Counted from the first letter of the stretch, positions 29,155 to 32,000 are shown. The stretch is 32,000 nucleotides of DNA from Fastidiosibacter lacustris (GCF_003428155.1 NZ_QLIR01000004.1:30001-62000), one strand, 5' to 3'. The notes: a model not told the origin generated them from the letters alone. Numbers and translations are program-made.

Positions 29155-29688
29155 ATGAAGAAAATAAATACATCAGCAAAACAAAAAGGGTTTTCATTAA
29201 TTGAGTTGATGGTAGTGCTCGTTATTATTGGGGTGTTAACAGCGATTGTGATTTCACAGTTTGCTAAAGCCGCGCAAAAAAACCGTATTCAAGAAACCAC
29301 AGCTTTAATAGGTACCATTCAATCAACTATCCATGATGTGACTCAAATGAATTTGGGTATGGCGATCGATGACACCCTTCTTATCCGTAGTGATCGGATT
29401 GCCAAGAAATATATTAATAAAGCTGGAAACGAGATCGTTACCCCATTTGGAGGGCGACTCGAAGTTAATGGTGTTGCTGGAGGAACACAGTACACTATTG
29501 TATTTAATAGCATGTCTAAGCAATCATGTGATTCATTAGCAACTGCAGCAAGTATGTCTGATGCGCTTAGTGTTCAAGTTGGAAGTCAAACACCTTTAAT
29601 GACACCGATTGCAGCTACTGCTATTGCTACTGATTGCGACCATGAGACTGGTCCGGATTATCCGTTGACACTGACATTCAAACGCTAA
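29155..29688 (+). CDS. Type IV pilin (probable major pilin of the downstream type IVb-like pilus operon)
   Basis: 177 aa. The prepilin signature is MKKINTSAKQKG|FSLIELMVVLVIIGVLTAIVISQF, with Gly-1, Phe+1, Glu+5 and a hydrophobic alpha1-N helix. Two Cys residues (KQSCDSL ... ATDCDHE) are placed to form a C-terminal D-region disulfide. Strong SD GGAG. Confidence 0.85.
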   Translation: MKKINTSAKQKGFSLIELMVVLVIIGVLTAIVISQFAKAAQKNRIQETTALIGTIQSTIHDVTQMNLGMAIDDTLLIRSDRIAKKYINKAGNEIVTPFGGRLEVNGVAGGTQYTIVFNSMSKQSCDSLATAASMSDALSVQVGSQTPLMTPIAATAIATDCDHETGPDYPLTLTFKR

Positions 29689-29758
29689 TGTAGTTCCACA
29701 TGAGTGTGTTTACTAAATAACTATTAAAAAATAACTTTAATAACACTATGTGTAACAC

Positions 29759-29785
29759 CCTCTTTGACCTTGTTTTGTCAAAGGG
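29759..29785 (+). terminator. Stem-loop in the pilin / minor-pilin spacer (candidate attenuator, non-canonical)
   Basis: CC(T)CTTTGAC (29759-29768), loop CTTGTTTT, GTCAAAGGG (29777-29785). This gives 9 bp with one bulge. It is followed by an A-rich, not T-rich, sequence. Confidence 0.3.
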
Positions 29786-29868
29786 AAGGTAAAAAACAAA
29801 AAATCAACTTAATATTTTTGTGTTTATTGCTAAAAAAATAATAGAAATTATAAGTTAGGAAAAACCAA

Positions 29869-30705
29869 ATGTATATATTCTCAAAAAAACTAAATTGCGT
29901 CCGCGTAAGGCATAAAGAGCAAGGCTATATCTTAATTTCATTAATGGCATCATTAGTAATTTTGGGTCTTATTGCAATTAGTGAATATATGCAATTGGTC
30001 AAAAAGCAACAGCTTGAGAGAGCCGAGACTGCTGCCAACAATATTATACACATTGCTTACACAATTGGTGATGCGATTTATGAGCCAATGGCGATGATTC
30101 AAATGTCTTCAACAACTTCAGAGCAAGATAATTACAAGAAACAGGCAAATGATATTAAGGAAGCATGGAAAAAGGAGAGTCGAATGATAAATGGTGAAAT
30201 AACTTTAAAACAATTTTATCAGACAGATAACTTATCCGCTGTATGCGGGATAACACATCCCCCTGTCTCATCAAACATAACATTTCCATCTTGTCTTGAA
30301 GCGAATAAGCCTCATAATAGATTTAGCCAAAATAATGGTAATTTCTTTTGTCAATGTACAAGTCAACAGATTGAAAAATTTCCATTCCTTAACATGGATG
30401 GAAATGTTTTCATGCAGCCAATAGGTCTGGCTAATAATGAAACACCGAAATCCGTGTTATTACGTGTGCCTTATCCTGAGCGTGGCGGTAAAGTGGACAC
30501 AGGACTCGCTCTAAGAATGATAGCGTATTTAAAGAAAAACCTAATTCACACGCCAGGGTCTAAGTTTGCAATTTGTGCAGGGAAATTAAAAAAAACAGGG
30601 ATGACGCGTACTGAGTTTAGGTGTAAGGATGATATTGAATCAAATGATGTACTTGATCCTAGTGTTGTCGATCAGTTTATTTATATCGATATTGCAAGAA
30701 GGTAA
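29869..30705 (+). CDS. Pilin-like protein with degenerate prepilin N-terminus (candidate minor pilin, TcpB/CofB position)
   Basis: 278 aa. The N-terminus is ...RHKEQG|YILISLMASLVILGLIAISEY, a Gly followed by an aromatic residue and a ~20-aa hydrophobic helix, but Ser instead of Glu at +5. Six Cys residues lie in the predicted mature part. It is the second gene after the major pilin, as in the tcp/cof operons. Confidence 0.5.
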   Translation: MYIFSKKLNCVRVRHKEQGYILISLMASLVILGLIAISEYMQLVKKQQLERAETAANNIIHIAYTIGDAIYEPMAMIQMSSTTSEQDNYKKQANDIKEAWKKESRMINGEITLKQFYQTDNLSAVCGITHPPVSSNITFPSCLEANKPHNRFSQNNGNFFCQCTSQQIEKFPFLNMDGNVFMQPIGLANNETPKSVLLRVPYPERGGKVDTGLALRMIAYLKKNLIHTPGSKFAICAGKLKKTGMTRTEFRCKDDIESNDVLDPSVVDQFIYIDIARR

Positions 30706-30712
30706 AAACAAT

Positions 30713-31393
30713 ATGAATAAGAAAATTAATTATAAGCTAAAGTGTTTTATTAGCTTCCCAGTACTTTTATGCACGGCTATGTTGCCTTATCAACTTGCTG
30801 TGGCAAATAAATTAGCAGTAGATGATCACTTTAAGCTGTTAAACCCTTATTGTATTTCAGATAAAGCTTGTGCTGATGCTGATCTTACGAAAACACATGG
30901 TATGGCTAAGATTTCTTCTGATGATGAATATAATGGTTTTGCACTCATTGTGGCTGACAATTTATTAGATCAGACGTTTTCTAGCAAACAGGTATATCAG
31001 ATTTTTAGCCAAGAAAACAATGATTATGCCATAAGTATTAATCTAGACGATAAAACAGTTGCGATTGCTAAAACACAAAAAGAAGCTGATTTACTAGCAA
31101 TGTGCCCAAGACAATTATTTTATGCCGAACAAGGGCAAACTTTAAAACAGACAGTTGAACGATGGGCCTCTTATCAAGGTATTAAAGTGATATGGGAAGC
31201 ATCTGTTGATTATAAGCTTGCCGCTTCGGCACAGTTTGAGGGACAACTGTTAGCAAAAAATGGAGCATTAAACAATTTGCTAAAAGCATTTGAAGATGCT
31301 GATCATCCACTGGAAGCACAGTTAAAGACAAATAACGTTTTGCTAATTAAAGCAAAATCATATTCTGCAAACATGGTCGTCATGCAAAAGTAG
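30713..31393 (+). CDS. TcpQ/PilL-like periplasmic pilus biogenesis protein
   Basis: The start is set to ATG 30713, 8 nt after the upstream stop. The track start 30629 overlaps the previous gene. Signal peptide MNKKINYKLKCFISFPVLLCTAMLPYQLAVA. The C-terminal block GQTLKQTVERWASYQGIKVIWEASVDYKLAASAQFEGQLL...LLKAF resembles the TcpQ-domain consensus as I recall it (G.tL...l..Wa...Gw.l.W....dy.l...a.f.G.f). Confidence 0.55.
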   Translation: MNKKINYKLKCFISFPVLLCTAMLPYQLAVANKLAVDDHFKLLNPYCISDKACADADLTKTHGMAKISSDDEYNGFALIVADNLLDQTFSSKQVYQIFSQENNDYAISINLDDKTVAIAKTQKEADLLAMCPRQLFYAEQGQTLKQTVERWASYQGIKVIWEASVDYKLAASAQFEGQLLAKNGALNNLLKAFEDADHPLEAQLKTNNVLLIKAKSYSANMVVMQK

Positions 31394-31408
31394 TTAAGGT
31401 TGTGGATA

Positions 31409-32000
31409 ATGAAAAACAATAAAAAGATATTACGTGTGTTGCTGTTGAGTAGCTTGATGCTATCGATGGCTGGTTGTAGCACTGCTATATATAAAACTGT
31501 TGATGAAAATGCAGATGCGAATATTGAGAAAACTAAGGCAATGATGTCAAACTTGAAAAAGCCAAAATCAGAGAGTTTTGTGACGATTAGTGATGAGCCT
31601 TACGTTCAAGGAGATTTAATTGATATTCAAGCACAAAACGCCTTGCCTGAAATATTTCAACGGTCATTTGCTTATAACAATACAGCAACAGGAGTAACAC
31701 TTGAAACGCTGATAGCAAAAATACAGCGAATTACTCAATCTAAGGTTGTTTTTTCGGAAGGTGCTATTGAGTATATTTCTCAGCGAGAACATCTAGCGAT
31801 GCCAGAGTCTGATATGCTAAAAAAAGAGCAGGTAGCGTATGAGATGTCGGATATTCATGATGTGATGATTCATTGTGACTATGATGGCAATATTGCCGGA
31901 TTTTTAGATTACTTTGCTTTTAAGCTTGGCATTTTTTGGAAGTATGATCAAAGTAGAAATACAGTTGAATTTTTTAGAATGGAAACAAAGACATTCCATG
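31409..32000 (+). CDS. Outer-membrane lipoprotein, probable type IVb secretin (TcpC/BfpB/PilN family), 3'-truncated by the window edge
   Basis: Not in the ORF track because it runs off the window. ATG 31409 opens a frame that stays open to nt 32000. My own translation is MKNNKKILRVLLLSSLMLSMAGC|STAIYK..., with the lipobox LSMAGC. Later comes GNIAGFLDYFAFKLGIFWKYDQSRNTVEFFRMETKTFH, the pattern typical of secretin N-terminal domains in the PilN/BfpB class. It immediately follows the TcpQ-like gene. Confidence 0.55.
   Translation, partial: MKNNKKILRVLLLSSLMLSMAGCSTAIYKTVDENADANIEKTKAMMSNLKKPKSESFVTISDEPYVQGDLIDIQAQNALPEIFQRSFAYNNTATGVTLETLIAKIQRITQSKVVFSEGAIEYISQREHLAMPESDMLKKEQVAYEMSDIHDVMIHCDYDGNIAGFLDYFAFKLGIFWKYDQSRNTVEFFRMETKTFH

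Follow-up and report, generated by a model that had tools for sequence, protein, structure and literature searches.

Which kind of pilus is encoded at the end of a 32,000-nucleotide (nt) stretch of the Fastidiosibacter lacustris genome (GCF_003428155.1 NZ_QLIR01000004.1:30001-62000; this whole stretch is called the window below), and does it belong, as the original prediction proposed, with the toxin-coregulated pilus (TCP) of Vibrio cholerae? The pilus genes of this relative of Francisella fill the last 2.85 kb of the window on the plus strand. Judging from the family assignments of their products, they belong to a real type IVb pilus (T4bP) operon that is chromosomal and complete in the species. 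We consider it likely that this eight-gene operon represents a separate T4bP lineage, with a TCP-like front, machinery like that of the bundle-forming pilus (BFP) and the R64 pilus, a single minor pilin and recombining pilin alleles. The proposed order of products would be major pilin, single minor pilin, TcpQ/BfpG-like protein, lipoprotein secretin, PilO2/BfpC-like bitopic protein, PilP/BfpU-like protein, extension ATPase and platform protein.

Four co-oriented open reading frames (ORF1-ORF4) were found in the window where they had been predicted, coding for a pilin, a larger pilin-like protein, a TcpQ protein and the N-terminus of a lipoprotein secretin, with spacers of 180, 7 and 15 nt that fit an operon. 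Their order is that of tcpA-B-Q-C and cofA-B-C-D, which was checked against an annotated cof operon, and it is unlike that of R64, where the pilin comes late; both points had been made from the sequence beforehand. The four-gene block was kept in four other genomes, namely the conspecific strain L004 (GCA_024208055.1; same synteny, 99.75% nt identity over the shared flanks) and three Cysteiniphilum genomes (L001, L002, which is C. halobium, and L003), and is therefore not a chance arrangement. The assignment to the type IVb pili held for the pilin, TcpQ and secretin families alike.

The major prepilin starts with MKKINTSAKQKG/FSLIELMVV, a class III signal peptide with a 12-residue leader (29155-29190), Gly at -1, Phe at +1 and Glu at +5, and carries a C-terminal cysteine pair. 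It scored above the gathering score for three Pfam families, N_methyl (37.7 bits; cutoff 21.2 bits), Bundlin (PF05307; 37.8 bits; cutoff 22.3 bits) and PilS (28.4 bits), and matched TIGR02532 (35.4 bits). Its globular domain matched the solved bundlin structure of BfpA (1zwt; E 1.6e-4), while no match to the Pfam TcpA family was obtained at E values up to 1. From these scores the pilin is bundlin-like and not of the TcpA/CofA type.

Translation of ORF3 begins with the ATG at 30713, which is eight bases past the ORF2 stop, and not at 30629. Its product has a Sec signal peptide (AVA/N) and a TcpQ domain (PF10671, residues 136-214) that reached 63.1 bits against a cutoff of 27, so that the hidden Markov model (HMM) search suggested for this gene came out in favour of the predicted family. 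Its best match among solved structures was BfpG (9u5s_R; E 1.2e-3). The TcpQ domain is preceded by an extension of about 100 residues (about 30-135; window 30713-31120) that matches no family and is absent from BfpG (133 residues) and CofC (137 residues). A tblastn search of plasmids with ORF3 returned only weak TcpQ matches from Pseudomonas and Xanthomonas, and an uncharacterised Vibrio parahaemolyticus plasmid protein scored 28.2 bits, slightly above CofC.

The secretin is 538 residues long in the L004 orthologue, which is 98.5% identical over the shared part. The portion within the window spans a lipobox (LSMAGC/S, read from the sequence), a region at the position of the BfpB LG domain and the start of an N0 domain. 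The secretin family was likewise borne out by HMM search, as the last 45 residues in the window (152-196) matched TIGR02520 (PilN-family secretin; E 2.5e-7) and full-length orthologues (69-98% identity) carry the Secretin domain PF00263. In Cysteiniphilum, PF00263 scored 33.4 bits and TIGR02520, the best NCBIfam match, 183.4 bits, below its trusted cutoff of 287.65. The only PDB match of the full-length L004 secretin was BfpB (9u5s_A; E 7e-40), with the alignment beginning at residue 140. Lipoprotein secretins are characteristic of T4bP systems, and the homologous proteins BfpG, TcpQ and CofC bind the secretin (PMC12531336).

Table 1. Features of the pilus locus, with positions counted from the first nucleotide of the window
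Feature	Position	Strand	Size, evidence or remarks
Major type IVb prepilin (ORF1)	29155-29688	+	177 residues; Pfam, TIGRFAM and 1zwt matches
Single minor pilin-like protein (ORF2)	29869-30705	+	278 residues; N-terminal motif, position, AlphaFold2 model
TcpQ/BfpG-family periplasmic secretin partner (ORF3)	30713-31393	+	226 residues; PF10671
Lipoprotein secretin, N-terminal 197 residues (ORF4)	31409-32000 (window end cuts gene)	+	Lipobox, TIGR02520
Hypervariable cassette 1, major pilin globular domain	~29300-29690	+	61-70% nt identity to L004
Hypervariable cassette 2, ORF2 globular part	~30050-30700	+	46-87% nt identity to L004
Pilin/ORF2 intergenic region	29689-29868	+	Hairpin ~29756-29789; 98-100% conserved between variable flanks
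OmpR-family winged-helix regulator, degenerate receiver	27856-28572	+	Trans_reg_C 62.8 bits
AT-rich region upstream of pilin gene	28573-29154	+	582 nt, 99-100% identical in L004

The product of the second gene, ORF2, is 100% identical to an F. lacustris protein on record. It opens with a prepilin-like basic leader followed by a hydrophobic helix (...RHKEQG/YILISLMASLVILGLIAI), and its N_methyl score of 15.7 bits is below the cutoff. The predicted mature start, KEQG/YILISL, has Ser at +5 in place of Glu. Seven ORF2 orthologues, mutually 49-68% identical, all keep the motif G/YILISL, and Ser5 and five cysteines are invariant among them; the reference minor pilins BfpI, BfpJ, BfpK, CofB and PilV have Glu5 in every case. 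When 1.84 billion representative proteins were searched with a profile, four relatives were recovered, all within the ORF2 family. No PDB match was found by sequence, phmmer gave no match to CofB, and a local HMM of the family found nothing significant in the reference operons described below. The AlphaFold2 model (predicted local distance difference test, pLDDT, 67) has a helix at residues 8-79 and, after it, a domain of mixed helices and sheets, and a Foldseek search with it returned nothing significant, TcpB ranking second (E 0.64) and CofB fifth (E 1.2). By its N-terminus, architecture and position ORF2 is pilin-like, and it appears as an orphan family and not as a homologue of TcpB or CofB. 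In TcpB, Glu5 is needed to trigger retraction and not to prime assembly, and a large minor pilin without Glu5 has been proposed as the mark of the first, tip subunit (PMC5207764). ORF2 exceeds the major pilin in size and has no Glu5, and therefore could only be a first subunit; we infer that it would prime assembly and cap the pilus and could not insert in mid-filament.

The remainder of the operon lies beyond the window and was read in the other genomes. After the TcpQ gene, L004 encodes the secretin, a 481-residue protein, a 163-residue protein, an ATPase annotated as T2SSE (542 residues) and a platform protein (377 residues), and the gaps across its eight genes are 179, 7, 15, 19, -11, 25 and -4 nt. 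Convergent genes stand directly after the platform gene, the first of them with no Pfam match. The same eight-gene module occurs in the three Cysteiniphilum genomes in different surroundings. A 481-residue protein on record for F. lacustris shows 100% identity to its L004 counterpart and comes from a contig equal in length (126,049 bp) to that of the recorded ORF2 protein; the window genome therefore continues likewise. The prediction that an ATPase and a platform protein would follow was thus confirmed in L004 and in Cysteiniphilum, where the ATPase reached 221 bits for T2SSE and the platform protein 27.4 bits for T2SSF (22.9 bits in L004, just under the cutoff of 25.2). The ATPase is the only one in the operon, which has no retraction ATPase.

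Between secretin and ATPase, the 481-residue protein has one central membrane-spanning segment (residues 237-256), as do BfpC and PilO2, and the only Pfam family that recurs among its orthologues is PF06864 (PilO; five of six). A PDB profile search gave nothing, and neither did a local HMM of the family give anything significant against the reference operons. The next protein (163-189 residues in the orthologues) matched TIGR03021 (PilP) weakly (E 3.3e-5), and hhalign comparisons placed the two, again by weak matches, with the BfpC-type genes (E 0.016) and with the BfpU/PilP profiles (E 0.004). Since BfpC and PilO2 have the same fold despite being almost without identity in sequence (PMC3984277), weak scores of the 481-residue protein are to be expected. 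The two proteins are candidates for a PilO2/BfpC-like bitopic protein and a PilP/BfpU-like protein, respectively, and this assignment is unproven.

Two further components had been expected and did not turn up. No prepilin peptidase gene was present within 10 kb on either side of the operon in L001-L004; T4bP operons with no peptidase rely on the PilD of the host (PMC3984277). No homologue of the secreted protein TcpF/CofJ was found in or beside the operon in Fastidiosibacter. At the tcpF/cofJ position, directly after the platform gene, two Cysteiniphilum genomes (L002, 16446-18734; L001, 16395-18761) encode a protein of 762-788 residues with a Sec signal peptide and a weak ElaD/SseL-like cysteine protease match (24.5 bits, cutoff 27), which is unrelated to CofJ and absent from Fastidiosibacter and L003.

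To place the operon among the T4bP classes, its proteins were scored by phmmer against four reference operons: BFP of pMAR2, a BFP-like cluster of E. coli p786605_3, the IncI2 pil operon and the cof operon of CFA/III. The last was located with a CofA N-terminal probe, and its identity was confirmed by the annotation of the record. Among these characterised operons the pilin, secretin, ATPase and platform protein all scored best against BFP or BFP-like proteins. The pilin gave 39.9 bits with BfpA, 37.6 with the p786605_3 pilin, 23.3 with CofA and 15.2 with PilS (IncI2). The secretin gave 140.1 bits with BfpB, 133.8 with its p786605_3 counterpart and 83.2 with PilN (IncI2), and no pairwise match with CofD. 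Scores of the ATPase were 191.8 (p786605_3), 168.6 (BfpD), 142.1 (CofH) and 140.2 (PilQ, IncI2), and those of the platform protein 57.8 (BfpE), 54.1 (p786605_3), 40.6 (CofI) and 34.8 (PilR, IncI2). Only the TcpQ protein ranked otherwise, with 27.0 bits for CofC, 21.9 for BfpG, 10.9 for p786605_3 and none for IncI2. A search of plasmids with the ATPase yielded thousands of matches of about 30% identity and was too unspecific for classing the system.

The likeness to BFP of enteropathogenic E. coli extends to a bundlin-type pilin whose leader is short (12 residues, compared with 13 in BfpA), to BfpB and BfpG as the best matches among solved structures, and, on the tentative assignment of the two genes between secretin and ATPase, to the order pilin, TcpQ/BfpG, lipoprotein secretin, bitopic BfpC/PilO2-like protein, BfpU/PilP-like protein, ATPase and platform protein. 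Protein identity is, however, just 25-30% or thereabouts, and the retraction ATPase BfpF, the peptidase BfpP, the transglycosylase BfpH, BfpL and the minor pilins BfpI, BfpJ and BfpK have no counterpart in the Fastidiosibacter operon, which has instead one minor pilin lacking Glu5, in second place. The TcpQ-like protein is also considerably longer than BfpG, and the operon is chromosomal, in a relative of Francisella.

The alternative that survives best, although we regard it as unlikely, is a thin pilus of the type found on R64 and on integrative and conjugative elements (ICEs), or a remnant of one, whose role would be to stabilise mating pairs as part of a conjugative or Dot/Icm-like type IV secretion element. 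The core order TcpQ/PilL-PilN-PilO-PilP-PilQ-PilR is shared with R64/IncI and with the PilL-V systems of ICEs (PAPI-1, Burkholderia Tfp7, Hydrogenophaga L010), two of which (PAPI-1 and Tfp7) also provide precedents for the absence of a peptidase, and gene order varies within this R64/ICE variant (PMC3984277). The conjugative elements of Hydrogenophaga and of a Vibrio plasmid carry clusters ordered TcpQ-secretin-PilO-x-ATPase-platform-PilS...PilV, that is, the same core with the pilins last. It is in these conjugation-linked clusters that the closest secretins outside the family occur, at no more than 27% identity; the Hydrogenophaga secretin, adjoining VirB genes, scored 174.5 bits, above BfpB, and the ATPase and platform protein of that cluster scored about as high as those of BFP. 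The best NCBIfam match of the secretin is, moreover, the PilN family, and a DotH/IcmK gene lies near the operon in two Cysteiniphilum genomes. However, no transfer, relaxase or integrase genes occur in the 29 kb upstream (window) or the 3 kb downstream (L004), and the operon has no shufflon (Shufflon_N), Rci, PilV, PilM, PilT or PilU. The IncI2 proteins score lower than those of BFP, with the pilin nearer to bundlin than to PilS, TIGR02520 remains under its trusted cutoff, and the two pilin genes come first and not last.

Very unlikely, in our view, is true membership of the class formed by TCP and by CFA/III (Cof) and Longus of enterotoxigenic E. coli, which would imply a minor pilin that primes assembly and also triggers retraction, and export of a colonisation factor by the pilus. 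This was the class originally proposed, and it is not supported, although several features speak for it: the arrangement of genes 1-4, a single minor pilin gene right after the pilin gene, the pairing of a TcpQ-family protein with a lipoprotein secretin, and the lack of a retraction ATPase. The TcpQ protein scoring best with CofC among Cof, BFP and IncI2, and the signal-peptide protein at the tcpF/cofJ position in two Cysteiniphilum species, fit it as well. Against these stands a pilin that is bundlin-like, with no Pfam TcpA match and with a 12-residue leader and Phe at +1, where TCP-class pilins have leaders of 25-30 residues and Met at +1 (30 residues in CofA). The secretin has no match to CofD compared with its 140 bits to BfpB. 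Between secretin and ATPase the Cof and TCP operons have three small genes (CofE/F/G, TcpR/D/S), whereas here there are two, for 481 and 163 residues, one of them a fused equivalent of CofE (C-terminal membrane segment) and CofF (N-terminal segment), which are separate proteins. The minor pilin, finally, is about half the size of CofB (523 residues, with Glu5), to which it is unrelated, and Fastidiosibacter has no homologue of CofJ/TcpF or of CofP/TcpJ.

Least probable is that the system serves mainly as a type II-like secretion piston exporting neighbouring signal-peptide proteins in place of building a long adhesive fibre, for although the lack of a retraction ATPase and the single bulky minor pilin without Glu5 are GspK-like features (PMC5207764) and signal-peptide proteins are encoded just downstream (762-788 residues in Cysteiniphilum, 629 residues in L004), GspC, GspL, GspM and a quartet of minor pseudopilins are all missing, the globular domain of the pilin is bundlin-like and of full size, both pilins show a strong allelic diversification that argues for surface exposure, and the downstream genes are not conserved between the genera. 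Readings as a type II secretion system, a Tad/Flp system or an MSHA pilus were rejected on account of the BfpB-like lipoprotein secretin with its TcpQ partner and the full-size bundlin-like pilin, the first two also on account of absent markers (GspC/L/M; TadZ/RcpA and Flp).

The operon lacks most of what defines the TCP class, and the same is true of the BFP and R64 classes when each is taken as a whole. Its front is ordered as in TCP and Cof and its machinery falls on the BFP/R64 side, which on the sequence comparisons would place it on a deep, separate T4bP branch. A compact new T4bP variant in the Fastidiosibacteraceae is the description that fits it best. In such a system a prepilin peptidase encoded elsewhere in the genome would cleave the leaders off the pilin (12 residues) and the minor pilin, the latter would prime assembly and end at the pilus tip, and the ATPase, platform and bitopic proteins would polymerise pilin into a fibre leaving the cell through the BfpB-like lipoprotein secretin, stabilised by the TcpQ/BfpG-like protein. 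There is neither a retraction ATPase nor a minor pilin bearing Glu5, and retraction would therefore be absent or intrinsic to the filament (compare bioRxiv 10.1101/2021.02.10.430637). Adhesion and auto-aggregation are likely roles.

Several points weigh against this reading. Genes 5-8 are attributed to F. lacustris by way of the conspecific strain and one identical protein. That protein, the 481-residue one, had no Pfam match itself in F. lacustris, its AlphaFold2 model reached a pLDDT of only 34, and the PilO2 and PilP assignments are both below curated cutoffs (best scores 24.8 against 26.7 bits and 24.9 against 34.65 bits, respectively). The pilin nature of ORF2, which has no significant homology to any known pilin, is argued from the motif at its N-terminus, the place of its gene in the operon, a medium-confidence model and the fact that it varies together with the pilin. 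The search for a prepilin peptidase, covering the operon surroundings, located none. The proposed function, the use of a host peptidase, the retraction behaviour and the regulatory link are deduced from the genes.

The window and L004 are 99-100% identical at the nt level everywhere outside two hypervariable cassettes, and the segments coding for both N-terminal helices and the 180-nt intergenic region between them stay 98-100% identical. At the protein level identity is 69-71% for the pilin and 66% for ORF2, compared with 99.6-100% for the TcpQ protein and 98.5% for the secretin N-terminus. Synonymous divergence (dS) in cassette 1 is 1.45 and nonsynonymous divergence (dN) 0.26, with a dS of 0.07 in pilin codons 1-46; cassette 2 has a dS of 0.72 and a dN of 0.31, with zero differences in ORF2 codons 1-62. 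Neighbouring genes have a dS of 0-0.03, and the dN/dS of the cassettes is 0.18-0.43. The high dS of the cassettes against that of their neighbours therefore speaks for old alleles brought in by recombination and not for recent local mutation. The relationships of the pilin alleles depart from the species tree, the L004 pilin being nearer to a pilin from a Cysteiniphilum species (76%) than to the conspecific one in the window (69-71%); the TcpQ proteins, by contrast, are 99.6-100% identical within the species and 61% between the genera. This pattern indicates that cassette alleles are exchanged by recombination among strains and even genera.

Allele replacement at pilin genes is familiar from pilA of Pseudomonas aeruginosa and from tcpA, bfpA and lngA. 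Here it hits the major and the minor pilin together, and this joint replacement favours the view that both proteins are exposed on the surface and functionally linked. The variation within the cassettes points to selection on the pilus surface, for example by phages, grazers, hosts or self-recognition. A more far-reaching version of the separate-lineage reading can be built on this, which we put forward as a tentative possibility and would not expect to hold in all its parts: the operon might be a distinct, minimal eighth T4bP variant, in which an orphan tip adhesin lacking Glu5 co-evolves with the pilin and allele cassettes circulate across Fastidiosibacter and Cysteiniphilum under frequency-dependent selection (phages, protist grazers, hosts, pilus-pilus self-recognition), the pilus being non-retractile or retracting by a filament-intrinsic route and, in Cysteiniphilum, perhaps exporting the signal-peptide protein with the weak ElaD/SseL-like match whose gene occupies the tcpF position.

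Ahead of the pilin gene, an OmpR-like regulator has a receiver domain that scored 21.7 bits for Response_reg against a cutoff of 30.2. Aligned with a canonical regulator from the same window (21237-22043), its DD pair is replaced by GV and its acceptor Asp by Ser. Orthologues adjoin the operon in L001, L003 and L004, and the acceptor Asp and the acidic pair are also replaced in L001 and L003. The regulator is atypical and, by its receiver residues, probably phosphorylation-independent, and it probably controls the pilus operon, a link drawn from the gene neighbourhood. Three direct repeats, GTA(A/G)TAAACAA(C/T)AAAAAA, stand at 29080-29151 just before the pilin ribosome-binding site, with starts 18 and 28 nt apart, and may be either a regulator binding site or mere A-rich sequence. 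A promoter scan found sites no more numerous than in shuffled sequence. The hairpin in the pilin/ORF2 intergenic region has modest support (fold z = -2.1), is followed by no T run and was not called by a terminator scan; it is possibly an attenuator or mRNA-stability element, and a recombination anchor. Regulator, repeats and hairpin are leads and not findings.

The window opens with rplA-rplJ-rplL-rpoB-rpoC followed by housekeeping genes as far as miaB, and from about 19.9 kb onward its GC content drops from about 40% to 29-39%. Found in this low-GC stretch are the genes for a two-component system, for two proteins without known function, for a 1063-residue pentapeptide-repeat protein and for the OmpR-like regulator, and the pilus genes; PADLOC linked none of the neighbouring genes to a defence system. 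The pentapeptide-repeat protein (24241-27432) has two repeat blocks, ends in some 300 residues of hydrophobic character, is 99.3% conserved in L004 and resembles an effector. Directly after rpoC comes a carboxylesterase gene (10862-12499; PF00135, 365 bits), situated where the GC content rises to 55% over 1 kb compared with about 40% for the backbone, a composition that makes horizontal acquisition likely. In Cysteiniphilum, the DotH/IcmK gene mentioned above (PF12293, 139 bits) is found about 3 kb downstream of the operon (L002, 18987-19925; L001, ~20073 to the end) and suggests a neighbouring Dot/Icm-type type IVB secretion cluster in the two genomes. C. halobium (L002) also encodes a TcfC/CooC-type usher of a CS1-class chaperone-usher pilus (884-3355) about 4 kb upstream of the T4bP operon, which puts two adhesin systems side by side.

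No published account of this system was found in a search that took in one comparative-genomics paper on Cysteiniphilum (PMC10228398), which mentions only type IV secretion system genes. Work on T4bP systems has been almost confined to enteric pathogens, plasmids and ICEs; here an intact chromosomal T4bP is found in the Fastidiosibacteraceae, a family to which Cysteiniphilum, an emerging pathogen of humans and a candidate pathogen of corals, also belongs (PMC10228398, PMC12771372). In practice the gain is modest and consists of a candidate colonisation factor and of better annotation, the secretin and the PilO2-like gene being listed at present as "hypothetical protein". With eight genes, one ATPase and one minor pilin lacking Glu5, the operon offers a natural test of whether such a minor pilin only primes assembly, and also of whether motor-free retraction requires a minor pilin bearing Glu5 (PMC5207764). 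The paired hypervariable cassettes provide an entry point to selection on the pilus surface in an environmental bacterium.

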